NCBI GenBank assembly: GCA_041648155.1
Contig: JBAZPL010000001.1
Span: 1-53,332 of the forward strand
Reading direction: 5' to 3'
DNA from: Candidatus Krumholzibacteriia bacterium
GTDB lineage: Bacteria > Krumholzibacteriota > Krumholzibacteriia > Krumholzibacteriales > Krumholzibacteriaceae
DNA length: 53,332 bases
The position numbers were made by a program, and so were the translations under genes. The notes beneath the pieces are model-generated. The model did not search any database, was not told where the DNA came from, and saw nothing but the letters and a program-made list of their open reading frames with translations. This document shows, piece by piece, positions 25,288-45,503 of the stretch (its first letter is position 1; each line of letters opens with the position of its first letter).

Positions 25288-25512
25288 TCAACGCACGGGA
25301 TCGTAGCCGCCGCTCGAGAAGGGGTGGCACCGCAGGATGCGCCTGATCGCAAGCGCCGTTCCCTTACCGGGACCGTGCAGCCGCAGCGCGTCCTCGGCGT
25401 ACCGCGAACATGAAGGCGTGAATCGGCACACCGGTGGATGATAGGGAGAAACAACCACTCTGTATATGTGCAAAGCCGTAAGGCCGATCCGTGTAAGAAT
25501 TCGCGATATCAT
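25288..25512 (-). CDS. yidD: Membrane protein insertion efficiency factor YidD
   Basis: MISRILTRIGLTALHIYRVVVSPYHPPVCRFTPSCSRYAEDAL...HPFSSGGYDPV. ATGA overlap with the rnpA stop. Confidence 0.85.
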   Translation of the reverse strand: MISRILTRIGLTALHIYRVVVSPYHPPVCRFTPSCSRYAEDALRLHGPGKGTALAIRRILRCHPFSSGGYDPVR

Positions 25513-25853
25513 CCGTTTGGTGAAATGAGTCCAGCCCTTCCCAACGAGCTCTCGACGTCCGCTAAGATCTCGTGGAACGTGCATTCCTTCGGGCGAAACG
25601 AGGCTACAAAAACGATCCAGAGATTCGTGTCGGTGAAACGATCTTCCAATCTCCTGAATATCTCTCTCATGTGCCTCTTCGCCCTGTTTCGCTGACAGGC
25701 CTTTCCTCTTTTCTTGCTTGCTACGAACCCGGGCACGACGCTGTCGCTTTCGTGCTTGAGAAAGTAAATGACGACCTTCGTCCCGGCTTCCCTCTTTCCC
25801 TCATTATAAACAAGACGAAACTGATTATTCTTTTTGAGCCTCCGCGATTGCAT
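25509..25853 (-). CDS. rnpA: Ribonuclease P protein component RnpA
   Basis: MQSRRLKKNNQFRLVYNEGKR...GFVASKKRGKACQRNRAKRHMRE (RNR motif). The track ORF (to 26015) reads through rpmH in another frame. Confidence 0.85.
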   Translation of the reverse strand: MQSRRLKKNNQFRLVYNEGKREAGTKVVIYFLKHESDSVVPGFVASKKRGKACQRNRAKRHMREIFRRLEDRFTDTNLWIVFVASFRPKECTFHEILADVESSLGRAGLISPNG

Positions 25854-25873
25854 GCGGACATCTTCCCTCACGA

Positions 25874-26008
25874 TTAGACGCTCAGGCGTTTTCTTCCCTT
25901 TGCTCTCCTCCTTTTCAGAACCAGGCGGCCGTTCTTCGTGCTCATGCGCTTGCGAAATCCGTGTGTCGTTTTCCTTCTTGTGTTGTGCGGCTGAAACGTT
26001 CGCTTCAT
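25874..26008 (-). CDS. rpmH: 50S ribosomal protein L34
   Basis: Too short for the ORF track. My translation is [44 protein letters not shown] (44 aa) with a TAA stop at 25874-25876. Confidence 0.9.
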
Positions 26009-26072
26009 TTTCCACCTTCTCCGATGATGGGTGTCTCCCGTATTCTTATGCCCTAGTATACAAAAGCAGAAT

Positions 26073-26101
26073 ACGATAGAAAAGACCTAAAACGTTGTCA
26101 A
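26073..26101 (-). promoter_or_regulatory. Sigma70-type promoter for rpmH-rnpA
   Basis: On the minus strand: TTGACA (26101..26096), a 17-nt spacer, then TATCGT (26078..26073), about 65 nt upstream of the rpmH ATG. Confidence 0.5.
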
Positions 26102-26196
26102 GCTAATAATCCCCCAAAATCATATCTCCGCTTGGCATCAAGGGTTTTCTCCCTCCTGCGAAAACCAGTCCAGGCCTCGTTTTCGATGTCAAGCCC

Positions 26197-26228
26197 AAAA
26201 TGTCATTTATAATTTTTTTAATTTGCAT
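26197..26228. other. AT-rich tract, candidate DNA unwinding element
   Basis: aaaatgtcatttataatttttttaatttgcat: 4 G/C in 32 nt, inside an otherwise roughly 60-65% GC window. Confidence 0.35.
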
Positions 26229-26385
26229 CACACTAACGAGTTGTGGCTATTTTCCCCCGGCCAAGAAAATTGTCTTGATAAGCCGCCAGGTGTGTGATAG
26301 ATTTCCCCCCGCGGGATGAGGGGACATTCCCCATGAGCGATACTGGCCACACCGTTTTACATCTTGGCCGACAGCTCTTTCTAAA

Positions 26386-26394
26386 TGTGGATAA
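26386..26394 (-). promoter_or_regulatory. DnaA box (perfect)
   Basis: TGTGGATAA on the plus strand, equal to TTATCCACA on the minus strand. Confidence 0.75.
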
Positions 26395-26453
26395 CGCTCT
26401 GAAAGTGATATTTGAATCCCGCTGATTCTATTACAAAAAATGAAGTTGCGCGG

Positions 26454-26462
26454 TTATCCACA
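26454..26462 (+). promoter_or_regulatory. DnaA box (perfect)
   Basis: TTATCCACA, followed 2 nt later by the degenerate box TGTGGGCAA in inverted orientation. Confidence 0.75.
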
Positions 26463-26578
26463 TTTGTGGGCAACCTCTGCAATTCAAAGAGATTCATACT
26501 GGTCTCCTGGGGGATTTTGCTTTCCTTCCGGGGGGCCATAATCGGGGATTCAAGGGCTCTTTTTCTCTCATATCGACG

Positions 26579-27928
26579 ATGAAAGACCGGCTCAAACACC
26601 TCTGGGATTCCATTCTCGAACGCGTGAGCTCGCACGTCAACGCGCAAAGCTTCCAGACCTGGTTCAAGCCGACGCGGCTCGTGAGTTGCGAGGACGGACA
26701 TCTTGTGATCGAGGGCCCGAATCCCTTCTTCGTCGATTGGCTCGCGGAGCACCACCGGGCCAAGATCGAGCAGGCGGCGCGCGAAACGCTCGGCGAGCCC
26801 GTCTCGGTCGAGTTCGTTTCTTCTGCGAACCCGCCGCGCGTTTCCCCGCCCGAGGCGAGCGCGACGCGCTCGATGATCGTGAACGAGCCCGTCATTGTCC
26901 CCGAAAACGCCCAGCTCAACGCCCGCTACGTATTCGACGAGTTCGTCGTCGGAAGCAGCAACCGTTTCGCCCACGCGGCGGCGCTCGCCGTCGCCGACAA
27001 CCCCGCGCGCGCCTACAATCCGCTTTTTATCTACGGCGGCGCGGGGCTCGGGAAGACCCACCTCATCCAGGCGATCGGACACCGCGTCATCGAGAAACAC
27101 CCGAAGATGCGCATCTCGTACGTTTCCGCGGAAGGTTTCATGAACGACCTGATCCTCGCGATTCGCTCCGGCATCACGCACGAGTTCAAGGACCGGTACC
27201 GCAACATCGACATTCTCCTCATCGACGACGTCCACTTTCTCGCGGGAAAGGAAAGCACGCAGGAGGAGTTCTTTTTCACCTTCAACGCTCTCCACAACGC
27301 GAACAAGCAGATCGTCGTCACGAGCGACCGGCCGCCGAAGGAGATCCCCACGCTCCAGGAACGCCTCACGTCGCGCTTCGAGTGGGGGCTGATCGCGGAC
27401 ATACAACCCCCCGACACAGAGACGAGGATCGCGATCCTCCGGAAAAAAGTCGAAAAGGAGCATATCCCGATCCCCGACGACGTCATCCAGCTCATCGCGG
27501 AAAACGCGAAGTCCAATATCCGGGAGCTCGAAGGATCCCTCATCAAGCTGCTGGCCTACTCGAGCCTCGCCAGCCGCGAGATCACCGCGGATATGGCGCG
27601 CGACGTCCTGGCCGACATGGTGAAAAACAGCGCCCCGAAAAAAATCGCGGTCCAGGCCATTCAGAAAGCGGTCGCCCAGCACTTCGACATCCCGATTGAC
27701 AGCCTCCGCGCGAAAACGAGAATCGCCCGCGTCGTCATCGCCCGCCAGGTCGGCATATATCTGTCGCGAGAGCTGACCGAGTTGTCTCTCGTCGAAATAG
27801 GGAAGCGTTTCGGCGGCCGCGATCACAGCACGGTTCTCCACGCGATCGCCAGGGTGAAGCAGGAGCTCGACCGGGATGCCTCGCTGAGGAGAAAGGTTCA
27901 GGCGCTTCTCGAAGAACTTTCGGCCTGA
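26579..27928 (+). CDS. dnaA: Chromosomal replication initiator protein DnaA
   Basis: 449 aa. LWDSILERVSSHVNAQSFQTWFKPTRLV, Walker A GGAGLGKTHL, Walker B LLIDDVHFL, SNIRELEG, C-terminal DNA-binding helix GGRDHSTVLHA. Confidence 0.97.
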   Translation: MKDRLKHLWDSILERVSSHVNAQSFQTWFKPTRLVSCEDGHLVIEGPNPFFVDWLAEHHRAKIEQAARETLGEPVSVEFVSSANPPRVSPPEASATRSMIVNEPVIVPENAQLNARYVFDEFVVGSSNRFAHAAALAVADNPARAYNPLFIYGGAGLGKTHLIQAIGHRVIEKHPKMRISYVSAEGFMNDLILAIRSGITHEFKDRYRNIDILLIDDVHFLAGKESTQEEFFFTFNALHNANKQIVVTSDRPPKEIPTLQERLTSRFEWGLIADIQPPDTETRIAILRKKVEKEHIPIPDDVIQLIAENAKSNIRELEGSLIKLLAYSSLASREITADMARDVLADMVKNSAPKKIAVQAIQKAVAQHFDIPIDSLRAKTRIARVVIARQVGIYLSRELTELSLVEIGKRFGGRDHSTVLHAIARVKQELDRDASLRRKVQALLEELSA

Positions 27929-28118
27929 TCCGGCGCCCGGCTTCGGGGGCTTTCCCACACTATCAACAGAACGGTTGTTGATACCTATAGATTGGGCTTC
28001 CTGATTGAGTGCTTTGTTGAAAACTTCGGGATTCCCACAGAGCACTCAACAAGGCCCCGTGTGGAAATATCGATATGGGGTTTCGGGATTTTGATGGTTT
28101 CAACAAATACACAGGGCC

Positions 28119-28160
28119 TACTCCTACTACAGAATCTTTCTATAATAAGGAGTAGGAGTA
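28119..28160. repeat. 10-bp inverted repeat around an AT-rich 22-nt loop in the dnaA-dnaN spacer
   Basis: TACTCCTACT (28119..28128) and AGTAGGAGTA (28151..28160) are exact reverse complements. The loop is acagaatctttctataataagg. Confidence 0.5.
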
Positions 28161-28308
28161 AAGAAGGGGATTATAGGGGAGTGGGTTTTTTGAGCCTTGG
28201 ACTGTTTTTCCTTGAAGCCGTACAGAGTATGCCGTATTATGGCCTTTCCATTTTGGAACCGGCAAGTATAAGAGTAATTTGATCCACTCCACATCAGGAG
28301 GTGGCGGC

Positions 28309-29418
28309 GTGAAGGTCAGTGTCCCTCTCAGTGAGCTCAACCATAAAATGAACGCCATATCAGGCGTTGTCCCGGGTAAAACGACGATGCCGATTCTATC
28401 GACCGTTCTTATGAGCGCGGAGAATGGAATATTCAGTATATCCGCCACCGATCTTGATATATCGGTAACATCGAGAGTCAACGGGACGGTCGTGGAAGAG
28501 GGAAAAATCGCGGCGCCGGCAAAGAAGCTTGCGGAGATCGTAAAATCGCTTGCGGGGGACGAAGTGGCGCTCGACGCAGAGGGAGACAAGCTGACGCTCT
28601 CGTGCGGAAAGAGCAGGTTCGTCATGAACGCGCGGAGCGCGGACGATTTCCCGAAGCTTCCGAAACAGGAAGGCAAAACGTCATTCGCGATAGATCCCGA
28701 GATCGTCGGTGCTCTCGTTCAGAAAACGACGTATGCGGTGTCGACCGATCTCACGAGACCCGCCCTGTGCGGCGTGCTGTGGGAAGTCGACCGTAAGGGA
28801 ATCTCGATGGTGGCGACCGACGGGCACCGGCTCGCGAAGGTCGAGATCGCGCTGGACCTGGGGAGCGTCCAGAAGATGGACGTCATCGTTCCGCCGAAGG
28901 CGCTCGGGACGATGCGGATCTACGCCGAGGGAGAAAAAGAAGTGCGGATCTCGATCGGCGAGAACAGCATCAGCTTCGACATGAAGGAAACGACGATATA
29001 TTCGCGGCTCCTCGAAGGGCCGTTCCCCAATTACCAGAGGGTCATTCCGGCGAAGAACGAAAAAGAGCTCGTTGTATCGCGCTCGGCCCTGGCCGAGGCG
29101 ACGAAGCGCGTATCCATCCTTTCCGACACGCTCACGAAGCAGGTCGTCTTCTCGATTGGCAAGACCAAGCTCATGCTCAACGTCAGCACGCAGGAGCTCG
29201 GCGAGGCGCGCGAGGAAATCGAGGCCTCCTTCTCGGGAGAAGCCATGGACATCGGCTACAACGCCAACTACGTTCTCGACATTCTCCGGACGATGGGCGA
29301 CGCCGAGGAGATCGTTTTCCTCCTCGATCGGCCCGACAATGCGGCCGTCGTGAAGCCCGCGAGCGAGGGCGGAAACCTGAAGCAGGTCTGCATCATCATG
29401 CCTTTGAGGATAGGGTGA
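28309..29418 (+). CDS. dnaN: DNA polymerase III beta sliding clamp DnaN
   Basis: VKVSVPLSELNHKMNAISGVVPGKTTMPILSTVLM... A GTG at 28309 sits 7 nt after AGGAGG; the track TTG start at 28279 is the alternative. C-terminus CIIMPLRI. Confidence 0.93.
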   Translation: MKVSVPLSELNHKMNAISGVVPGKTTMPILSTVLMSAENGIFSISATDLDISVTSRVNGTVVEEGKIAAPAKKLAEIVKSLAGDEVALDAEGDKLTLSCGKSRFVMNARSADDFPKLPKQEGKTSFAIDPEIVGALVQKTTYAVSTDLTRPALCGVLWEVDRKGISMVATDGHRLAKVEIALDLGSVQKMDVIVPPKALGTMRIYAEGEKEVRISIGENSISFDMKETTIYSRLLEGPFPNYQRVIPAKNEKELVVSRSALAEATKRVSILSDTLTKQVVFSIGKTKLMLNVSTQELGEAREEIEASFSGEAMDIGYNANYVLDILRTMGDAEEIVFLLDRPDNAAVVKPASEGGNLKQVCIIMPLRIG

Positions 29419-29449
29419 CCATCGGGTGAAGGGGGCGGGGTGACGGCGG

Positions 29450-30556
29450 GTGATCGTTCGCGGCGTCGACATTGTTAATTTCCGCAACATCGCGAAAGCG
29501 GAGCTTTCCTTCTCGCCCACATTCAATCTGATCACGGGGCGGAACGCGCAGGGCAAGACAAATCTTCTCGAGGCGATCTATCTCTTTTCTCTCGGACGCT
29601 CCTTCAGGACGCGAAGTCTCGATGAGGTAATCCGGTTCGGCGAGGAATACTTCTACGCCGGGCTCAGGGGGAGGAGCGATGCGGGAGTCGATTTCACGAT
29701 CGAGGCGGGGGCCGAGCGGGGGGGAAGGACGAAGGTGTCGAGTAACGGGAAAAAGGCCTCGGGGCTCGCGGAGATAGTCGGGATCATACCGGGGGTCATT
29801 TTCGTCGCGGAGGATATCCTTCTCGCGGCGGGTCCGCCCGCGGAGAGACGAGCGTACCTCGATTATACGGCGGCACAGATATCCCCCTTGTACCTCCGCG
29901 GGATCAAAGAGTACCGCGGGGCGCTCAGGCAGCGAAACGCCCTTCTCGAGCGCGCCGCGCGGGAAGGCGGCGCGCCTCTCGGAATCGAGCCGTGGGACGC
30001 CGCGCTCGCCGAAAAAGGGGCGGCGATCGTACGGATGCGCCTCGAGACGATGCGGGAGGTAGAGGCGCGGGCCCGCACGCTCCTCGGCGAGATCCTGGGG
30101 GACGCGGCCGGCTTCAGCATGCGGTACGTCTGCTCCTTCAATCCTTCGGGCAAGGAGCCCGGGGAGGCGCTTCGGGAAGCGCTCGCGAGGGTCCGGGAGG
30201 CGGAACGGAGGAGAGGCTACACGATGGCGGGACCGCATTTCGACGACGTGCAGATATTCCTCGAGGAGTCCGAGATCAGGCGCTTCGGGTCGCAGGGGCG
30301 AAAGCGCCTCGCCGCCCTGGTGCTCAAGCTCTCCCAGGCGCTCACCATCCTCGAAAAGCGCGGGGAGAAGCCGGTCGTTCTTCTCGACGACATCTTTTCG
30401 GAGCTCGACCGCGAAACGGCGGAGCGCGTGAGGGGGCACCTCGCGGACAGCTACCAGAGCTTCATCACAACTCCGCGGCCGGACGAGTTCGGCGCCACGG
30501 GCCCGGGGGCCGCGCGCTTCTCCGTGGATGCGGGAATGATAACGCCTCTCGGCTAG
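29450..30556 (+). CDS. recF: DNA replication and repair protein RecF
   Basis: 368 aa, GTG start. Walker A GRNAQGKTNLLEAI, signature GSQGRKRLAALVLKL, Walker B VVLLDDIFSELD. Confidence 0.93.
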   Translation: MIVRGVDIVNFRNIAKAELSFSPTFNLITGRNAQGKTNLLEAIYLFSLGRSFRTRSLDEVIRFGEEYFYAGLRGRSDAGVDFTIEAGAERGGRTKVSSNGKKASGLAEIVGIIPGVIFVAEDILLAAGPPAERRAYLDYTAAQISPLYLRGIKEYRGALRQRNALLERAAREGGAPLGIEPWDAALAEKGAAIVRMRLETMREVEARARTLLGEILGDAAGFSMRYVCSFNPSGKEPGEALREALARVREAERRRGYTMAGPHFDDVQIFLEESEIRRFGSQGRKRLAALVLKLSQALTILEKRGEKPVVLLDDIFSELDRETAERVRGHLADSYQSFITTPRPDEFGATGPGAARFSVDAGMITPLG

Positions 30557-30736
30557 CGGGTGGGGATGGCGCCGGACATTCCCGCTCCGAGCCCAGTCGC
30601 AGAGCTCCAATGGGCTCATTCGCGGGAATGTCCGCGCCGGCACCGTTAGCGGGTGGCGCCCATGGGGCCCCCGCACGCAGCGCAGCGAGCTTTGCGAGCG
30701 AGCACGTGCGGGGTGCAATGGGCGACAGGACCCGCG
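30554..30736. repeat. Two consecutive long imperfect hairpins, REP-like and related to the 18.4-18.7 kb repeats
   Basis: Both begin with tagcgggtgg (30554 and 30647). Hairpin 1 pairs CGGACATTCCCGC (30573..30585) with GCGGGAATGTCCG (30622..30634), with an inner GAGCCCA/TGGGCTC stem. Hairpin 2 runs 30647..30736 with stems GCGGGT/ACCCGC, CGCCCAT/ATGGGCG and CCCCGCACG/CGTGCGGGG. Confidence 0.7.
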
Positions 30737-30835
30737 TAGCAAGCGAAAAAATGAGCCCGGCGCGGTCTAAATTCTTGTGTCTTTTTTCAGGGTTTGCTAA
30801 TAAAATTCCACATCCGCAGGGAGGTACGCTTCGCC

Positions 30836-31144
30836 GTGGATACGAAATCATCCGCGAGGGTCGGGGAGATCCTCCCCCGCGTGCTCGAGCTCTTGGGGCT
30901 CGACAACAAGTTCGAAGAGGTGAAGCTCATGCGGGGATGGGCGGAGGTGGTGGGGCCCGTGATCGCGCAAAGAAGCCGCCCGCGGATGCTGAAGGACGGC
31001 ATCCTCTTTATAGAAGTCGAGAACAGCGTTTGGATGCAGGAACTGTGGTTCCATCAGAAACAGATCGTCGATCGCATCAAGAAGGAATATCCGAAGATCG
31101 AGGTCAAGGGCATTCGCCTCGAGATTGAAAGGGAGAACAGATAA
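30836..31144 (+). CDS. DUF721 domain protein (DciA-like), in the conserved slot between recF and gyrB
   Basis: VDTKSSARVGEILPRVLELLGLDNKFEEVKLMRGWAEVVGPVIAQRSRPRMLKDGILFIEVENSVWMQELWFHQKQIVDRI. A GTG at 30836 sits 10 nt after GGGAGG; the track TTG start is at 30794. Confidence 0.75.
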   Translation: MDTKSSARVGEILPRVLELLGLDNKFEEVKLMRGWAEVVGPVIAQRSRPRMLKDGILFIEVENSVWMQELWFHQKQIVDRIKKEYPKIEVKGIRLEIERENR

Positions 31145-33058
<1,914 letters not shown>

Positions 33059-33075
33059 CACAAGAGGAGCAGGGA

Positions 33076-35631
33076 ATGGACATCAGCCGCCAGCGGATCA
33101 TACCGGTCTATATAGAAGACGAAATGCAGACCAGCTACCTCGATTACTCGATGAGCGTCATCGTCTCCCGCGCGCTCCCCGACGTTCGGGACGGCCTCAA
33201 GCCGGTCCACCGGCGGATCCTGCTCGCGATGAACGACCTCGGCGTCATGCACAACAAGCCGTACCGCAAGTCCGCGAAACTCACCGGAGACGTAACCGGC
33301 AACTACCACCCCCACGGCACGTCCAGCGTATACGACGCGGTCGCCCGCATGGCGCAGGATTTCTCGATGCGCTATCCCCTCGTCGACGGGCAGGGGAACT
33401 TCGGTTCGGTCGACGGCGACCCTCCCGCGGCGGAACGGTATACCGAGGTGCGGATGACGGAGATCGCCGAGGAGCTCCTCGCCGATCTCGAAAAGGAGAC
33501 GGTCGAGCTCGGACCCAACTACGACGAGACGCGCCAGATGGCGCTCGTGCTGCCGGGTAAGGTACCGAACCTCCTCATCAACGGGGCGGCAGGCATCGCC
33601 GTCGGCATGGCGACGAACATCCCGCCGCACAACTTCTGCGAGATCATCGCCGGGCTCAAGATGCTCCTCGACAAACCCGCCGCGACCGTCGAGGAGATCT
33701 CGAAGGTCGTCACGGGCCCCGACTTCCCGACGGGGGGTATCATTTACGGAAGGGCCGGCATCCGCGAGGCCTACGCGACCGGCAGGGGGAAGGTCATACT
33801 TCGCGCCCGCGCGACGATCGAAACGCAGAAGAGTGGCAAGATGAGCGTCATTGTGAACGAGATCCCCTATCAGGCCAACAAGGCCTCCATCATAGAGAAG
33901 ATCGCCCACCTCGTGCGCGACGGGAAGCTCGAGGGCATCTCCGACATCCGCGACGAATCGGACAAGGAAGGGATGCGCATCGCCATCGAGCTCAAGAAAG
34001 ACGCCTACCCGAAGGTCGTCCTCAACCAGCTCTTCGCCCACACGCAGCTCCAGGTGACGTTCGGGATCATCATGCTCGCGCTCGACAAGATGCGCCCCGT
34101 CGTCATGAACCTCAAGGAGCTCATGGAGTGCTTCCTCGCGCATCGCGAGGAGGTCATCACCCGGCGCACGAAGTACGACCTTGCCCGGGCCGAGGAGCGG
34201 GCCCACATCCTCGAGGGGTACAAGATCGCGCTCGACCATATCGACGAGATCGTACAGCTCATCAAGAAGAGCGCCTCCCCCGACGAGGCCCGCAAGGGGC
34301 TCGTGAAGACGTTCAAGCTCTCGGAAATCCAGGCTCAGGCGATCCTCGACCTGCGGCTCCAGCGCCTCACCGGTCTCGAACGCAAGAAAATCGAGGACGA
34401 ATACCTCGAGCTCATCAAGAAGATCGAATATTTCCGCTCGATCCTCGAGAGCCGCACGCGGCTCCTCGGAATCATCCGCGACGAGCTCGACGACCTCAAC
34501 ACCCGCTTCGGCGACGAGCGCCGGACCGACATCGTCGACCAGGAAGGCGAGTTCCAGATCGAGGATCTGATCGCCGAAGAGAACATGATCATCACGATCA
34601 CCCATACCGGCTACATCAAGCGCATCCCGACCGGGACCTACCGGCGCCAGCGCCGCGGCGGGAAAGGGATCTCCGGGATGGGCATGAAGGACGAGGATTT
34701 CATCGAGCATCTCTTCATCGCCTCGACGCACAGCTACCTGCTCTTCTTCACCGACAAGGGGCGGTGCTTCTGGGTGAAGGTGCACGAGCTCCCGCAGGGC
34801 GGGCGTCTCGCCCGCGGCAAGGCGATCGTGAACCTCCTCGAGATGTCGCGCGACGAGAAGATCACCGCCTTCGTCCCCGTGGGCGATTTCAAACAGGACG
34901 CCTATCTCATGCTCGCGACGAAGGACGGCTTCATCAAGAAGACGCACATCTCCGCCTACGCGAACCCGCGGCGCGGCGGCATCATCGCGGTGATCCTCCG
35001 CGAGGGGGACAGCCTCATCGCGGCGAAGCTCACCTCGGGGAGCGACGACATCATCCTCGCGAAGCGCAAGGGGAAGGCTATCCGGTTCGGCGAGAAGGAC
35101 GTCCGCGACATGGGGCGCTCGACCCAGGGCGTGACGGGAGTCAAGCTCGACAAGGACGACAACGTCGTGTCGATGGTCGTCGTGAAGCGCGGGGGGGAGC
35201 TTGTCGCCGTGACCGAGCACGGCTACGGCAAACGCACGAGAATTGGCGATTTCAGAAATATCAAGCGTGGCGGCAAGGGCGTCGTCGCCATCTCCACCGA
35301 CGCGAGGAACGGCGATCTCGTCGCCGTCAAGGAAGTGATCGAGGAGGACGAAGTGATGATCATCACGCGCAACGGGATCATCATACGCTCCCCGGTCAAC
35401 AGCATCTCCATTCTCGGGAGACCTGCGAAGGGCGTGAAGCTCATCAGCCTCGCCGAGGGAGACGCCGTCGTCGATGTCACGCTCATGGCCGGCGAAAAGA
35501 TTCCGGAAGGCGAAATCGCGGAAGGGGATGAAGGGGAAGAGGTGGACGGGGAAGATATCGGCGACGAGGCCGGTGACGAAGAGGCCGAGGCGGCCGAAGA
35601 GGAAACTGGCGGAGAGCCGGAAGAGAAGTAG
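33076..35631 (+). CDS. gyrA: DNA gyrase subunit A
   Basis: [49 protein letters not shown], active-site region AERYTEVRM, GyrA-box-like [13 protein letters not shown] 33076 follows GAGGAG; the track TTG start is at 33055. Has a 40-aa acidic C-terminal tail. Confidence 0.97.
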
Positions 35632-39861: not shown

Positions 39862-41547
39862 ATGACACGAGGACTGATGTTCGTCGGACTAGCGCTCCTC
39901 GCCTTCGCGGCGTGGAGCGGCTGCGCGAAAAAGGAGAAAATTATGATCGAGCCGGCGGCGGATGCGGGGAAGCGGCTCGAAGCGTATGCGACATACGACA
40001 TCGAGGTGCCATGGGAAGTCATCGGGGAGCGGAACAGGCCCGCCCTCCAGAAGCTCTACGAGGCGTCGCGGATCATGGACGAGCTGTTCGTTCGCCAGGT
40101 CTGGGCGCGGAACGTCGAGCTCCGCGACGAGATCGGCCGCCGAGGGAACCCGGAGCTCTCCCGGTTCTTCTGGCGCAACTTCGGGCCGTGGGACCGCCTC
40201 GACGACAACGCCCCCGTCCTCGTCAAGGACGCGAAGCCCGCGGGCGCGAACTTCTATCCTCCCGATATGACGAAGGAGGAGTTCGAGAACTGGGTCAAGA
40301 ATCACCCGGCGGACAAGGCGGCCTTCGAGAGCAATTTCACCGTGATCAAGCGGACGAAGGACAAAGGGCTCGAGGCCGTTCCCTATTCGAAGGAATACAC
40401 AGAGCTGCTCACGGAGGCCGCGCGCCTTCTCGACGAAGCAGCGGCGCTCGTCGACAACGAGTCGCTCGCCAACTTCCTCAAGCTCCGCGCCAAGGCGTTC
40501 CTCTCGGACGACTATTTCGAGAGCGACATGGCCTGGATGGACGTGAAGGACAACGTGATCGACATCACGATCGGTCCCTACGAGGTCTATGAGGACAACC
40601 TCTTCAATTATAAGGCCGCCTTCGAGGCATTCCTCTGCGTGCGCGATCCCGAAGAGACGAAGAAGCTCGATGGGCTCAAGGCGTACGTCTCGAAGATGGA
40701 GGCGAATCTGCCCATCCCCGATCAGTACAAGAACACGACTCGCGGGATGGAGTCGCCGCTCTCCGTCGGGGACGAGATCTTCTCCGCCGGCGACACGAAG
40801 GCGGGCGTGCAGACGATCGCCTTCAACCTGCCGAACGACGAGCGCGTGCGCGAGGCCAAGGGGAGCAAAAAGGTGATGCTCCGCAACATCTGCAAGGCCA
40901 AATTCGAGAAGATACTCATGCCGATCGCGCAGCAGGTGATTGCGCCGGAGCTTCTCCCGTACGTCACCTTCGACACCTATTTCAACGAGATCCTGCTGCA
41001 CGAGATCTCGCACGGCCTCGGCCCCGGCACGATCAAGCTCCCCGACGGCTCGACGACCACCGTCAACAAGGCGCTCCGCGAGACCTATTCGGGGATCGAA
41101 GAGGCCAAAGCCGATGTTGTGGGGGAGTACAATTTTTATTATCTTGTAAATGAAGGGTTTTTCCCCGAAGCGCTCGCGAAGGAGACGGCGGTGACCTATC
41201 TGGCCGGCTTCTTCCGGTCCGTGAGGTTCGGCGTCGGTGAGGCACACGGGAAGGCCGTGATGGCGATCTTCAACTACTTGAGGGAACGCGGCGCTTACGT
41301 CAGGGATCCGGCCACGGGGTACTGGTCGGTCGATTTCACCAAAATTCAGGATGCGGTCAAGGCGTGCGCGAGCGAGCTCCTCACGCTCGAGGCGCGCGGC
41401 GATTACGACGGGGCGAAGGCCTTTATGGAGAAATACGCCCAGATGGACCCGGAGCTCAAGGCCCAGCTCGACAATCTCAAGGGGATCCCGGTCGATATCG
41501 AGCCGAGATTCGCCATCGAAGGAGCGTTTGGCGGGACACTGAAGTAG
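39862..41547 (+). CDS. Lipoprotein zinc peptidase related to family M49 (dipeptidyl-peptidase III-like)
   Basis: Start MTRGLMFVGLALLAFAAWSGC (lipobox), with AAGGAGGAG upstream. HEISHGLG (HExxH) and a second motif EEAKADV comparable to the M49 EExxAE. The track TTG start at 39772 is unsupported. Confidence 0.7.
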   Translation: MTRGLMFVGLALLAFAAWSGCAKKEKIMIEPAADAGKRLEAYATYDIEVPWEVIGERNRPALQKLYEASRIMDELFVRQVWARNVELRDEIGRRGNPELSRFFWRNFGPWDRLDDNAPVLVKDAKPAGANFYPPDMTKEEFENWVKNHPADKAAFESNFTVIKRTKDKGLEAVPYSKEYTELLTEAARLLDEAAALVDNESLANFLKLRAKAFLSDDYFESDMAWMDVKDNVIDITIGPYEVYEDNLFNYKAAFEAFLCVRDPEETKKLDGLKAYVSKMEANLPIPDQYKNTTRGMESPLSVGDEIFSAGDTKAGVQTIAFNLPNDERVREAKGSKKVMLRNICKAKFEKILMPIAQQVIAPELLPYVTFDTYFNEILLHEISHGLGPGTIKLPDGSTTTVNKALRETYSGIEEAKADVVGEYNFYYLVNEGFFPEALAKETAVTYLAGFFRSVRFGVGEAHGKAVMAIFNYLRERGAYVRDPATGYWSVDFTKIQDAVKACASELLTLEARGDYDGAKAFMEKYAQMDPELKAQLDNLKGIPVDIEPRFAIEGAFGGTLK

Positions 41548-41783
41548 AACTTTGATGTTCCATTAGATAGCAAATGGAAACGTAGAACCCCCGGCCCCTG
41601 TATTAAGGCCGGGTGACCACCTCCGATTAAGGTCGACCTTCGTGGGGGTATGTTGACCTTTCGGTGTTGGAGGTACCCTGGGCACCCGGCCTTTATCATG
41701 CCCGCCGCGCGCTCACTTGGCGCTTGATTTCGGGGCCAAAGACCGCTAATCTATTACTCTACCATAGCGTAAGGAGGATATTG
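41548..41783 (+). promoter_or_regulatory. Structured 5' leader with mutually exclusive helices upstream of the corrinoid operon; class not recognised
   Basis: GGCCGGG(TG) at 41607..41615 can pair with CCCGGCC (41590..41596) or with CACCCGGCC (41683..41691, followed by TTTAT). Nested stems ACCTCC/GGAGGT (41619/41669) and AAGGTC/GACCTT (41629/41655). Confidence 0.3.
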
Positions 41784-42434
41784 ATGCAGGCATTCCTCGA
41801 TGGTTGCGCAAAATCGGTGCTCGAAGGGGACGCGGATGCGGCCGAGAAGCTTGCCCGCGAGGCGCTCGACAAGAAATATCCGCCGTTCGAGGTCATCGAG
41901 ATGGGTTTCGTGAAGGGAATCAAGGAGGTGGGCCGCCTCTGGGAGGATGGCACGCTTTTTCTTCCCGAGCTCGTCATGGGCGCGGAAGCGATGAAGCGCG
42001 CGATGGCCGTTCTTCATCCGGCCCTCGCGAAGAGCGGGGCGCGGCCGAAATCCCTCGGCCACGTCGTCATCGGAACGATCGAGGGGGACATTCACGATAT
42101 CGGGAAGACGCTCGTCGCGACGATGCTCTCGGCGAACGGTTTCGAGATCACCGACCTCGGCGCCGACGTCCCGGTTGTGAAATTCGTGGACGAGGTCGAG
42201 GCGCGCGGCGCGGGCTGCATCGCCGTATCGGCGCTCCTCACGACGACGATGTCGGGGCAGAGGCGCGTCGTCGATGAGCTCAAGAAACGCTCGCTCAAGG
42301 GCAAGGTGAAGGTTATGGTCGGCGGCGCTCCGTGCAGCGACGAGTGGGCGCGCGAGATCGGCGCCGACGGCTACGCCGGAGACGCGGTTGCGGCCGTTTC
42401 CCTCGCGCAGAGCCTCATGGGCTCGCGCGACTAA
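41784..42434 (+). CDS. Corrinoid (cobalamin)-binding protein, methyltransferase cognate type (B12 cap + Rossmann domains)
   Basis: MQAFLDGCAKSVLEGD..., with AAGGAGGA upstream. B12 motifs GDIHDIGK (DxHxxG), SALLTT (SxL), MVGGA (GG). Confidence 0.85.
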   Translation: MQAFLDGCAKSVLEGDADAAEKLAREALDKKYPPFEVIEMGFVKGIKEVGRLWEDGTLFLPELVMGAEAMKRAMAVLHPALAKSGARPKSLGHVVIGTIEGDIHDIGKTLVATMLSANGFEITDLGADVPVVKFVDEVEARGAGCIAVSALLTTTMSGQRRVVDELKKRSLKGKVKVMVGGAPCSDEWAREIGADGYAGDAVAAVSLAQSLMGSRD

Positions 42435-42470
42435 TATCGAACAGGCGGCACGGGAGATCCGGGGGGCGCG

Positions 42471-43376
42471 ATGCAGAAACACGATTTCCTCGAAACGATA
42501 AAGCGCAGGGTCGTCCTTTTCGACGGCGGCATGGGGAGCATGCTCATCGCCGCGGGGCTCACCCAGCGCGAGATTCCCGAGGCGTGGGTTCTCTCGAAGA
42601 GCGAGAAGATCGGCGAGGTGCACGCCGCGTATCTCGAGGCGGGCGCCGAGATCATCACGACGGCGACCTTCGGGGCGAGCCGTCTCAAGCTCGGCGCCTC
42701 CGAGGCCGGGAAGTCGCTCGACGCGGCGCGAGTGAACGAGAAGGGCGTCGAGGTCGCGCGGAAGGCGCTCGAGCGTTCGGGAAAGCGCGAGAGATTCGTC
42801 GCGGGGGACATCGGCCCGACGGGCCTCTTCTTTCCGCCCGTCGGCGCCCTCAAGGCCGACGAGGCCCGCGCGGCCTTCCGCGAGCAGGCGAAGGCGCTCG
42901 CCGCGGGCGGCGTGGATCTATTCATTATTGAGACGATGTACGATCTCCGCGAGGCCGTCGAGGCGCTGCGCGCCGTGAAGGAAGTGTCGAATCTCCCCGC
43001 CGTCGTCACGCTCACCTTCGACCGCAAGCCCCGGGGCTTTTTCACGATGATGGGGGACACGACGGACAAGGCCGTCGAAACGCTGCTCAAAGAAGGAGCG
43101 AGTGTCATAGGCGCGAACTGCACGCTCCAGAGCGGCGACATGATCGATCTTGCGGAGGAGTTCAGGTTTCTCACCGATGCGCCGCTCGCGTTTCAGCCGA
43201 ACGCGGGGCGCCCCGTTATGGAGCACGGCGTCGCCGTGTATAAGCAGCGCCCCCGGGAATTCGCTGCTGACGCGGTGAAGATCGTGGCCGCGGGGGCCAA
43301 CGCCGTGGGCGGGTGCTGCGGCACGACGCCCGAGTTCATCCGAGAGGTCCACGCGACACTCATACATGGAAAATGA
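42471..43376 (+). CDS. Homocysteine S-methyltransferase domain protein (MetH Hcy-module / BHMT family)
   Basis: 301 aa. LFDGGMGSML, IITTATFGA, FIIETM, and zinc ligands GANC and VGGCCGTTPEF. Confidence 0.85.
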   Translation: MQKHDFLETIKRRVVLFDGGMGSMLIAAGLTQREIPEAWVLSKSEKIGEVHAAYLEAGAEIITTATFGASRLKLGASEAGKSLDAARVNEKGVEVARKALERSGKRERFVAGDIGPTGLFFPPVGALKADEARAAFREQAKALAAGGVDLFIIETMYDLREAVEALRAVKEVSNLPAVVTLTFDRKPRGFFTMMGDTTDKAVETLLKEGASVIGANCTLQSGDMIDLAEEFRFLTDAPLAFQPNAGRPVMEHGVAVYKQRPREFAADAVKIVAAGANAVGGCCGTTPEFIREVHATLIHGK

Positions 43377-44017
43377 TGGAGCCTGTCGTTCTCGAAAAAT
43401 TCGACGTCGCGATAGATCCCGCGGAGGTGCGGCGCTTCCTGGGCTCCAAGGACGCGGGGAGGCCCGCTCCCGCAGGGCGCTACGACGGGATTCTGGGCGA
43501 GGCAACGGGGGCGGCGAAGCGCCTCATCGTTCCGAAAGGGATATATACATACGCCGCCGGGCGCGAGCTCCCCGGCTCGACGATTTTCGCGCACCTCGAC
43601 CGGATGGCGTTCTGCGTCTGCACAATAGGCCCCGCGCTCGAGGCCGAGGTGACGAGACTCTCGACGAGCGGCGAGCTGCTCAAGGCGGTCGTGCTCGACG
43701 CGATCGGATCGGTCGCGGCGGAATCGGCCGCGGCGCACATCGACGCGACGATCGCCGCGGAGGCGGCGCGGGAGGGGCTCAAGACGTCGTGCCGTGCGAG
43801 CCCGGGCTACGGCGACTGGGACGTGCGAGAGCAGGCGTCCATTTTCAAGCTGCTCCCCGCTGAGCGGATCGGCGTGCACCTGAGCGATACGTTCATGATG
43901 TCGCCGCGGAAGTCGGTCTCGTTCGCGATGCACGTCGCGGCGGAGCCCGGGAGGCTTCGCAGCGAGAACTCGTGCGAGAATTGCGGTCGGAAGGATTGTC
44001 GGTACCGGTTGGATTAG
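43373..44017 (+). CDS. MetH activation (reactivation, AdoMet-binding) domain-like protein with a C-terminal Cys cluster
   Basis: MMEPVVLEKFD... ATGA overlap with the upstream stop. CRASPGYGDWDV and LSDTFMMSPRKSVSFAM resemble the RxxPGY and xMxPxxSVS motifs of the MetH C-terminal domain. C-terminus CENCGRKDC. Confidence 0.7.
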   Translation: MMEPVVLEKFDVAIDPAEVRRFLGSKDAGRPAPAGRYDGILGEATGAAKRLIVPKGIYTYAAGRELPGSTIFAHLDRMAFCVCTIGPALEAEVTRLSTSGELLKAVVLDAIGSVAAESAAAHIDATIAAEAAREGLKTSCRASPGYGDWDVREQASIFKLLPAERIGVHLSDTFMMSPRKSVSFAMHVAAEPGRLRSENSCENCGRKDCRYRLD

Positions 44018-44030
44018 AGGGAGGACCGAA

Positions 44031-45503
44031 TTGGAGAAAAACATGAATCCCCGAATAACCTGGTGGACGGAGAAGGCGAGAAGAAAGATCGTCGACGAGG
44101 CGAAGCGGATCCTCGAGGAGATCGGCGTTTTCGTCGAGAACGACGAGGCGCTGCGGCTTCTCGACGGCGCGGGCGCCCGCATCGACCAAAAGAGCCGCCA
44201 GGTGCGCATCCCGGCCGGGCTCGTCGAGAAGGCCGTGGAGAGCGCGCCTTCCAGGGTATCGCTCTATAACCGCAGCGGCGAGCAGGTCATGGATCTCGGT
44301 GGGGACCGCGTGCATTTCAATCCTGGCTCGGCGGCGCTGCGCATCTACGATCCGAAGGAGAAGCGGGCGCGAACACCCATCACGGCCGACCTCGTGAAGT
44401 TCGCCACGCTCATCGACGCGCTCCCGGGCTACGCCGCGCAGAGCACGGGGCTCATCGCGGGGGACGTGCCGCAGGAGATCCAGGACCGCTACCGGCTCTT
44501 CATCGCGCTCCAGTATTCGGTGAAGCCGGTCGTGACCGGCACCTTCCTCGTCGACGCATTCAAGGTGATGCACGAGATGCTCTCGACGGTCGCCGGGGAC
44601 GCCGAGAAGCTTCGCGAGAAGCCGATGGCGATCTTCGACTGCTGCCCTTCACCCCCGCTCAAGTGGAGCGACCTCACCGCGCAGGCCCTCATCGATTGCG
44701 CGCGGACGGGAATCGTCGCCGAGCTCATTTCGATGCCGCTCACCGGTGCCACCTCGCCGGTCACCCTCGCCGGCGCTGTCGTGCAGCACTGCGCCGAATC
44801 GCTCAGCGGCGTCGTCATTCACCAGCTCGCGACGCCGGGCGCCCCGATAATCTACGGCGGATCCCCCGCGTGCTTCGACATGCGCAAGGGCACGACGCCG
44901 ATGGGCGCCATCGAGACGATGATGATCGACGGCGCCTATGCCGAGATCGGAAAGCACCTCGGGCTTCCCGTGCAGGCGTACATGGCGCTGAGCGATTCGA
45001 AGACGGTCGACTATCAGGCGGGGATGGAAAGCGCGATGGGCGCCGTGATCGCGGCGCTCTCCGGCATCAACAATATCTCCGGACCCGGCATGCTGGACTT
45101 CGAGTCGTGTCAGAGCCTCGAGAAGCTCGTTCTCGACAACGAAACCTGCGGCATGGCGCTCAGGCTCGTTGAGGGGATCGAGCTTCGCGACGACCCCATA
45201 GTTTCCCTCGACCTCATGCGCGAAGGGATCGAGCGCAAGAGCTTCCTCTCGCTCGCCCACACGATGAAATGGTTCCGCAAGGAAGTCTATTATCCCGACG
45301 AGGTGATCGATCGCAACGCCCTCGACGAGTGGCAGAAGCAGGGATCGAAGGATGCCGCGATGCGCGCCACCGAGCGCGTCGAGAAGATTCTCGCGGCGCA
45401 CAAGAGCGAGCCGCTCGATCCGGAAATCCACGCGCATCTCAAAGAGCTCATGTCGGCGGAGGCGAAGCGGTTCGGGATGAAGGATCTGCCGATTGTATCT
45501 TGA
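44031..45503 (+). CDS. MttB-family (trimethylamine methyltransferase superfamily) protein, non-pyrrolysine type
   Basis: 490 aa, uninterrupted (no in-frame TAG). My recognition of MttB-family similarity over the whole length is unverified. TTG start 7 nt after GGAGG; ATG 44043 is the alternative. Confidence 0.8.
   Translation: MEKNMNPRITWWTEKARRKIVDEAKRILEEIGVFVENDEALRLLDGAGARIDQKSRQVRIPAGLVEKAVESAPSRVSLYNRSGEQVMDLGGDRVHFNPGSAALRIYDPKEKRARTPITADLVKFATLIDALPGYAAQSTGLIAGDVPQEIQDRYRLFIALQYSVKPVVTGTFLVDAFKVMHEMLSTVAGDAEKLREKPMAIFDCCPSPPLKWSDLTAQALIDCARTGIVAELISMPLTGATSPVTLAGAVVQHCAESLSGVVIHQLATPGAPIIYGGSPACFDMRKGTTPMGAIETMMIDGAYAEIGKHLGLPVQAYMALSDSKTVDYQAGMESAMGAVIAALSGINNISGPGMLDFESCQSLEKLVLDNETCGMALRLVEGIELRDDPIVSLDLMREGIERKSFLSLAHTMKWFRKEVYYPDEVIDRNALDEWQKQGSKDAAMRATERVEKILAAHKSEPLDPEIHAHLKELMSAEAKRFGMKDLPIVS

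Follow-up and report, generated by a model that had tools for sequence, protein, structure and literature searches.

Positions 41,784 to 45,503 on the forward strand of a 53,332-nucleotide (nt) stretch of Candidatus Krumholzibacteriia bacterium DNA (assembly GCA_041648155.1, contig JBAZPL010000001.1, positions 1 to 53,332; hereafter the window) carry a four-gene operon that we judge, with moderate confidence, to specify a four-component, cobalamin-dependent and folate-independent methyltransferase system that would form methionine. Its predicted components are a stand-alone corrinoid protein, a homocysteine S-methyltransferase (Hcy) protein, a MetH-type activation protein and an MttB-superfamily protein. 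The initial annotation of this DNA regarded the combination of modules as undescribed, but the four-gene cluster and the accompanying hypothesis were already set out in 2022 by Williams et al. (Environ Microbiol, PMC9324843), and a related, tested system is reported in PMC12478193. As classified from its sequence, the operon is a Krumholzibacteriota member of a conserved and previously noticed type of split, MttB-linked putative methionine synthase.

Operon architecture and components

The four co-directional, tightly packed genes have a high third-position GC content, and no further credible open reading frames (ORFs) were found in the region that they occupy:

41784-42434, + strand: stand-alone corrinoid (B12-binding) protein, predicted His-on; 216 amino acids (aa), PF02607 and PF02310
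42471-43376, + strand: homocysteine S-methyltransferase domain protein, predicted methyl-corrinoid:homocysteine methyltransferase (MT2); 301 aa, PF02574
43373-44017, + strand: TM0269-like MetH activation (S-adenosylmethionine-binding) domain protein with a C-terminal CX2CX4C tail; 214 aa, PF02965
44031-45503, + strand: pyrrolysine-free MttB-superfamily methyltransferase, predicted methyl-donor:corrinoid methyltransferase (MT1); 490 aa, PF06253

A 36-nt gap separates the first two genes, the activation gene starts over the stop of the Hcy gene in a 4-nt ATGA overlap, and the 13-nt gap ahead of mttB holds the Shine-Dalgarno sequence GAGGGAGG; this spacing fits a single operon. The mttB gene begins with a TTG at 44031, 6 nt past GAGGGAGG, with an alternative ATG at 44043. 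Much of what the initial annotation had read from this region was borne out: all four same-strand, packed genes lie where it had placed them, the motifs it quoted (GDIHDIGK, GANC, GGCCG, SPGYGDW and MMSPRKSVSF) are all present and invariant or nearly so in 45-57 orthologues, and the proposed domain assignments (PF06253, PF02607/PF02310, PF02574 and PF02965) all scored above curated thresholds in profile searches.

Evidence for the acceptor side of the system comes from the Hcy protein, which matched PF02574 with 225.4 bits (E = 1.7e-66). Its Zn ligands C217, C282 and C283 were invariant in 45 sequences, and E154 of the ETM motif, a glutamate that we take to contact the homocysteine amino group as in MetH and BHMT structures, was conserved in 44/44. 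The best solved relatives were MetH Hcy domains (Thermotoga maritima, 149.6 bits; Thermus, 128 bits), whereas the score was only 60.9 bits for 5dml, a stand-alone homocysteine S-methyltransferase, and 58.6 bits for BHMT; the BHMT/MtgE-like model PRK07534 gave 183 bits, under its cut-off of 338. The acceptor-side enzyme is thus homocysteine-type, as first proposed, and lies far nearer to MetH Hcy domains than to enzymes that use small-molecule donors directly, which fits methyl uptake from a corrinoid.

The corrinoid protein matched PF02607 (80.3 bits) and PF02310 (93.1 bits), and its DxHxxG (D102, H104, G107), S149xL151 and G180G181 motifs were invariant in 57 sequences. It also exceeded the cut-off (215.3 bits) of TIGR02370, the model for 'methyltransferase cognate corrinoid protein', with 219.7 bits, and scored 212 bits with the MtgC model versus 150.6 bits with MetH. 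By score, this predicted carrier resembles the MttC/MtgC type more closely than it does the B12 domain of MetH, and hence the operon is a chimera of two lineages and not, as initially described, three of the four MetH modules set out as separate polypeptides.

For the activation protein, a match to PF02965 (34 bits, cut-off 25) was accompanied by a best Protein Data Bank sequence match to TM0269 (1J6R; phmmer E = 2.9e-7). Structural comparison agreed with this placement, as the AlphaFold (AF2) model, with a confidence (pLDDT) of 87.4, returned 1J6R as its top Foldseek match (E = 5.6e-11, TM 0.72/0.78, 202 columns), followed by the MetH reactivation domains of Thermus, E. coli and human, with 1MSK and 6BM5 among the fold matches. 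The RxSPGYGxW (R141, G145-Y146) and MMxPRKSxSF motifs were conserved in orthologues, and binding of S-adenosylmethionine (AdoMet or SAM) is predicted. Sequence and fold therefore support a reactivation component of MetH/TM0269 type, in agreement with the initial annotation, rather than of RamA type. Huang et al. 2007, as cited in PMC7857596, report that T. maritima TM0268 needs TM0269 for its reactivation.

The same protein ends in a CX2CX4C motif (C201, C204, C209; window positions 43973-44014) that was present in 40/51 homologues and followed the locus type closely, occurring in 37/38 proteins encoded beside an Hcy gene and in 3/13 encoded elsewhere. Its conservation suggests a metal or Fe-S site; we know of no such Cys tail in MetH activation domains. 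Cys83 was considered as a fourth ligand and rejected, as its presence does not track that of the triad.

The MttB homologue aligned with profile positions 28-493 of the 500 of PF06253 (307.5 bits, cut-off 25; E = 1.4e-91). Against TIGR02369 (trimethylamine methyltransferase) it reached 416.2 bits, under the cut-off of 525, and its reading frame is uninterrupted and free of in-frame UAG codons, as had been noted for this 490-aa protein. The position equivalent to pyrrolysine (Pyl) 334 is L320, a Leu as in MtgB, and of 79 orthologues, 76 have Leu at this site, 2 have Met and 1 has Val. Identity was 32% to Methanosarcina barkeri MttB and 31% to Desulfitobacterium hafniense MtgB, using reference MttB (7xcl) and MtgB (9yce) sequences that were rebuilt from printed alignments; the solved relatives were 7xcl, 9yce/2qne and 4yyc. 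The predicted enzyme is accordingly classed within the non-pyrrolysine MttB superfamily, with a cognate TIGR02370-type corrinoid gene in its operon, and is not MttB proper, given the sub-threshold TIGR02369 score and the lack of a pyrrolysine codon.

Conservation across phyla

To place the window in context, one genome per GTDB species was scanned with peptide patterns derived from the orthologue alignment of the clade, which identified relatives of the window MttB protein in at least 594 species-representative stretches. The best 80 of these at least 594 (54-95% MttB identity) were kept and, together with extra loci, gave 82 loci that were analysed by tblastn with the window proteins and by all-against-all ORF clustering. 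Of the 82, 59 have a corrinoid gene with mttB, 57 a gene for an activation-domain protein and 47 one for an Hcy methyltransferase. All four genes were found together in ~36/80 GTDB loci, with further copies cut by contig ends, and the order corrinoid-Hcy-activation-mttB was kept in every four-gene locus but L080. The recurrence of one arrangement in one order argues against chance and, with the tight spacing, agrees with the initial view of the genes as an operon, which proves to be conserved.

Organism labels, some of which are doubtful for binned genomes, spanned Krumholzibacteriota, Acidobacteriota, Ignavibacteria, Zixibacteria, Planctomycetota (Phycisphaerales), Myxococcota (Myxococcales), Gemmatimonadota, Eiseniibacteriota and others. 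In a neighbour-joining tree, all 80 orthologues formed a single clade on a long stem from MttB and MtgB, and many of its deep branches contain the four-gene arrangement, so that the module is probably ancestral; it is distributed over many phyla. An exact-sequence look-up of the window MttB protein returned no record, and orthologues were used in its place; its nearest relatives (up to 93% identity) are labelled Krumholzibacteriota and have the flanking M49 peptidase and nadA genes in common with the window.

Across the surveyed neighbourhoods, the Hcy methyltransferase was the sole methyl-acceptor-type enzyme to recur beside these mttB genes. Pterin-binding, MtrH and URO-D families were not recurrent within ~8 kb of mttB in the 80 orthologous loci, nor did two or more of the 92 pooled ORFs beside loci without an Hcy gene match pterin-binding, MtrH or URO-D families in Pfam; orthologous clusters do not, then, regularly carry a pterin-binding methyltransferase that was lost in the window. 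No other family was widely recurrent, the next most frequent neighbours being lineage-specific. In the 53-kb window itself, no pterin-binding, MtrH, RACo/RamA, MetH, MetE or MetF gene was detected when practically every plausible ORF was compared with Pfam, upholding the earlier statement that pterin-binding and MtrH genes are missing there.

Incomplete clusters were also found. Three of the 80 loci combined Hcy, activation and mttB genes with no detected corrinoid gene; two of these sit at contig ends, but in L031 no corrinoid gene was detected despite an upstream flank of 5 kb. A further 3/80 had corrinoid and Hcy genes alone beside mttB. The loci without an Hcy gene comprised 12 with corrinoid and activation genes, 5 with a corrinoid gene only, 1 with an activation gene only and 13 with mttB alone, where ~10/13 had at least 4 kb on the usual partner side and a few had short flanks. 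A sub-clade labelled Aminicenantes and 'Eubacteriales' lacks the Hcy gene: 12 of its loci combine mttB with both the corrinoid and the activation gene, and 5 with the corrinoid gene only. Here a RACo/RamA-type activase gene (PF14574) was found ahead of the corrinoid gene in 4/5 corrinoid-only loci and 2/12 corrinoid-plus-activation loci (L054, L057, L065, L070, L072 and L084). RACo appears, from this distribution, to be a non-orthologous replacement of the PF02965 activation gene in some lineages, and its occurrence where the activation gene is absent supports a role in reactivation for the third gene of the window operon.

Separately, 13-14 loci of one Krumholzibacteriota-like sub-clade carry three co-directional, overlapping genes directly 3' of mttB (L003, 11499-13976; L004, 11482-14000; L085, 12313-14858; and ~10 more loci), which encode an isochorismatase-family hydrolase, a thioredoxin-reductase-like flavoprotein (Pyr_redox_2) and a weak radical-SAM-like protein. 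These genes, which are not in the window, may be an operon extension, for example for electron supply.

Proposed reaction, methyl donor and competing explanations

A three-step scheme can be proposed from the family assignments together with the conservation of catalytic residues and of synteny. Judging from its family, the MttB homologue (MT1) would move one methyl group from the donor to the Co(I) corrinoid protein. The Hcy protein (MT2) would then activate homocysteine at its Cys3-Zn site and take the methyl group from methyl-Co(III), as its family and the conserved synteny suggest, to yield methionine and regenerated Co(I). Corrinoid in the Co(II) state would be reductively remethylated with AdoMet by the activation protein, by homology to TM0269 and the MetH reactivation domain, with an electron from flavodoxin or ferredoxin that possibly passes through the protein's own Cys-rich tail.

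The identity of the donor can be approached through the glycine-betaine site of MtgB, which Picking et al. 2026 (PMC13080624) established by mutagenesis and a ligand-bound structure. In that enzyme Y97 and F356 hold the quaternary nitrogen and R312 and H348 the carboxylate; every member whose function has been characterised retains R312 and acts on acidic quaternary amines (PMC13080624). The residues aligned with MtgB Y97, R312, H348 and F356 in the window protein are S100, Q315, S350 and E358, in stretches where the alignment is ungapped or has one gap. Among the 79 orthologues, the first of these positions is Ser in all 79, the second is His in 68 and Gln in 11, the third is Ser in 78 and the fourth is Glu in 78. 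All betaine-site residues are thus replaced by others that the clade conserves, which implies a pocket that differs from that of the betaine enzymes and is itself conserved, and the donor is therefore probably not glycine betaine or another carboxylated (acidic) betaine. The essentially invariant Glu and Asp356, the latter with a conservation of at least 90% in 15 close orthologues, hint that the donor may be a methyl compound that is cationic and non-acidic (non-carboxylated). Of the function first put forward, corrinoid-dependent methyl transfer from a betaine-like quaternary amine to homocysteine, the transfer mechanism remains the best-supported reading, whereas the betaine-like donor is not upheld by the replaced MtgB-site residues. 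As a side observation, one locus (L042) has an amino-acid permease downstream.

Several observations weigh against a dedicated, folate-independent route to methionine. Donor clues, namely transporters, choline/betaine genes or an alternative MT2, were not recurrent in the surveyed neighbourhoods. In 31/80 loci no Hcy gene lies within ~8 kb of mttB, and the MT1/corrinoid pair is evidently able to serve other acceptors in such genomes. A pterin-binding subunit may be encoded elsewhere in the Krumholzibacteriia genome. PMC9324843 notes a canonical MetH as well in the Electryoneota genomes that have the cluster, so the system is not necessarily the main methionine synthase of its host. No SAM, cobalamin or other relevant Rfam riboswitch was found in the window at the gathering threshold, or in the leader (41300-41900) at E values up to 5, and an Rfam search of 22 orthologous loci gave no methionine-linked regulatory signal, only tRNAs and two marginal PYLIS_3 matches.

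Full-text literature searches yielded no paper characterising this cluster type. The closest precedent is that of Williams et al. 2022, who describe metagenome-assembled genomes of Ca. Electryonea and Ca. Hatepunaea that encode a non-pyrrolysine MttB/MtgB homologue clustered with proteins homologous to three MetH modules, those for homocysteine binding, cobalamin binding and activation, an arrangement also attributed to 'diverse bacteria'. On bioinformatic grounds only, the authors proposed corrinoid-dependent methionine synthesis from an unknown methyl donor (PMC9324843). Compared with that description, the window has the same four components, all contiguous, and its MttB homologue is likewise placed outside the MtgB and MttB clades; the difference lies in the phylum, Ca. 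Electryoneota there and Krumholzibacteriota here.

Partial likenesses extend to the MtgBCDE system of Ruegeria pomeroyi and Phaeobacter inhibens (PMC12478193; bioRxiv 10.64898/2025.12.19.695462), which also unites a PF06253 enzyme with stand-alone corrinoid and homocysteine modules on one cofactor carrier and couples methyl-donor demethylation to methionine synthesis. Genetic analysis in Ruegeria by Mausz et al. 2025 (PMC12478193) showed that a PF06253 methyltransferase acting on glycine betaine and a split methionine synthase are both served by one corrinoid protein. That system differs from the present one in that the pterin-binding MtgD is essential for both functions, whereas the window lacks PF00809; in its RamA/DUF1638-type reactivation, where the window has a PF02965-type protein and no RACo; in its mostly dispersed genes, with mtgE usually apart from mtgBCD; and in the action of its MtgB on glycine betaine. 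D. hafniense MtgB/MtgC/MtgA and Eubacterium limosum MtcB/MtpB/MtyB/MthB similarly pair a non-pyrrolysine MttB-family MT1 with a cognate corrinoid protein, but pass the methyl group to tetrahydrofolate, depend on RamA-type ATP-dependent activases and act on acidic quaternary amines through Arg312 (PMC13080624), where Gln or His is found here.

With MetH the operon shares a Cys3-Zn Hcy domain, a DxHxxG B12 domain and an RxxxGY activation domain, and T. maritima TM0268 with TM0269 offers a precedent for a stand-alone activation protein. The differences from MetH are that the pterin-binding module is missing, that all modules are separate polypeptides, that the corrinoid protein is of the methylamine-methyltransferase type and that the activation protein bears the extra CX2CX4C tail. 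Folate-free methylation of homocysteine also has precedents in BHMT and in the core methionine synthases MesA-D. BHMT differs in being corrinoid-free and binding betaine directly, and the Mes enzymes are reportedly distant relatives of MetE and not PF02574 proteins. In Price et al. 2021 (PMC7857596), the core synthases are described as homocysteine-methylating without folate and as probably drawing methyl groups from corrinoid proteins in vivo, and MttB is not mentioned there as a partner.

The Ruegeria precedent gives weight to an unlikely though serious alternative, in which the MttB homologue and corrinoid protein are mainly a catabolic demethylase that passes methyl groups to tetrahydrofolate through a distant pterin-binding methyltransferase, and the Hcy module is a split methionine synthase subunit that borrows the corrinoid protein, so that transfer from donor to methionine is a side reaction. 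Such shared-corrinoid wiring has been shown genetically in R. pomeroyi (PMC12478193), and no Hcy gene lies next to many of the orthologous MttB-corrinoid pairs. Set against this are the missing pterin-binding or MtrH gene, both in the 53-kb window and as a recurrent neighbour ~8 kb around the 80 loci, the translational coupling of the Hcy gene within the operon, and a four-gene order that is kept across phyla. These same features favour the four-component, folate-independent system.

Two further alternatives alter one end of the transfer. Replacing the donor, the MttB-clade protein could use an endogenous, universally present carrier of methyl groups, for example a methylated folate or pterin, which would make the operon a complete, non-canonical housekeeping methionine synthase. 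Its unusually high conservation (54-95% identity over many phyla), the lack of a linked transporter or substrate-specific regulator, the position among housekeeping genes near the replication origin in this genome and the loss of the betaine-binding residues all lean this way. We nevertheless consider it improbable, since no MttB-family member is known to bind pterin, no sequence feature points specifically to a folate site, and, according to PMC9324843, cluster-bearing Electryoneota possess a canonical MetH as well. Replacing the acceptor, the PF02574 protein could methylate a thiol or selenol other than homocysteine, in a methyl-donor:thiol system analogous to the MtaA/MtbA step of methanogens. 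PF02574 chemistry is a generic Zn-thiolate activation, and methionine-specific regulation was found neither in the window nor in the 22 loci searched; yet MetH Hcy domains are its nearest relatives of solved structure, the Glu of the ETM motif does not vary (44/44) and, to our knowledge, all characterised PF02574-family members act on homocysteine or close analogues, making this reading very improbable. The methylation of non-native thiols by mixed corrinoid systems, which has been demonstrated (PMC13618148), also speaks in its favour.

Beyond the four-component, folate-independent system that we prefer, a more far-reaching version can be offered only tentatively. The cluster would then be an ancient, widespread cobalamin-dependent, folate-free methionine synthase whose MttB donor is new to the superfamily, is not an acidic betaine and is possibly endogenous, and whose reactivase has its own metal or Fe-S centre on the CX2CX4C motif and is independent of flavodoxin.

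Genomic setting and significance

Pfam scans of the remaining ORFs identified a chromosomal replication-origin region in the window, noted at 25509-35631. Origin-region genes comprise rnpA, yidC, jag, mnmE, mnmG, rsmG, parA, parB, dnaA (26579-27928), dnaN, recF, a DciA-like gene, gyrB, gyrA and hflX. The cumulative GC skew reaches its minimum at ~28 kb and the skew changes sign beside dnaA. Past hflX lie M20 and M49 peptidase genes, followed by the four-gene operon, envelope protein genes and nadA.

A possible promoter and a Shine-Dalgarno sequence lie before the operon:

41724-41752, + strand: candidate promoter block TTGATT-N17-TAATCT, conserved in relatives; low confidence
41772-41777, + strand: AGGAGG Shine-Dalgarno ahead of the corrinoid gene

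The promoter block is kept in the close relatives L001, L005, L006, L008 and L009; confidence in it is low because the -10 hexamer is weak and a consensus promoter scan called no sigma-70 site before the operon. In four other loci (L015, L016, L023 and L025) the leader is longer and contains, ~40-75 nt upstream of the start of the corrinoid gene, a hairpin (CCCGG-N-CCGGG) whose pairing is kept through sequence changes and which is followed by GAAGAAAAC and a Shine-Dalgarno sequence. This hairpin, not present in the window, is a candidate attenuator or regulatory hairpin. The two PYLIS_3 matches (L071, 8940-9039, 38.8 bits; L062, 4820-4919, 38.2 bits; gathering score 38) were rejected as functional elements, as they lie inside pyrrolysine-free mttB coding sequences and most likely reflect coding homology to Pyl-type mttB.

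Between the M49 peptidase stop and the operon lies a conserved, structured element of ~95 nt (41607-41702, + strand) with the pattern GGCCGGG...CCUCC...GGUCGACCUUCGUGGGGG...GGAGG...CCCGGCC. RNAalifold folded it with a long closing stem and 21 pairs in all, of which 6 showed compensatory changes, 5 of them in the closing stem; no Rfam match was obtained. In 12 related loci the element directly follows the M49 peptidase gene, whether or not the operon is adjacent. A role as operon leader was rejected, as the element stays with the 3' end of the M49 peptidase gene also in genomes where the operon is not next to that gene, and it may instead be a 3'-untranslated-region structure, an unusual terminator or a small RNA.

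As the idea of an MttB-linked, corrinoid-dependent methionine synthase is already published, the value of the present locus lies in testing rather than discovery. The present analysis adds a multi-phylum survey, the finding that no pterin-type partner recurs, evidence from the active site that speaks against betaine donors, the apparent replacement of the activation protein by RACo in some lineages and the conserved Cys-rich tail of the reactivation protein. With four soluble proteins the system should reconstitute easily, making the question of the donor directly testable. Should the proposed function hold, many uncultured bacteria of sediment, soil and groundwater would make methionine from a methylated compound and B12, sparing methyl-tetrahydrofolate, and a new link would be drawn between methylamine or osmolyte turnover, cobalamin demand and sulfur amino-acid synthesis. 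Ultimately, the substrate range of the MttB superfamily would then reach past acidic quaternary amines.

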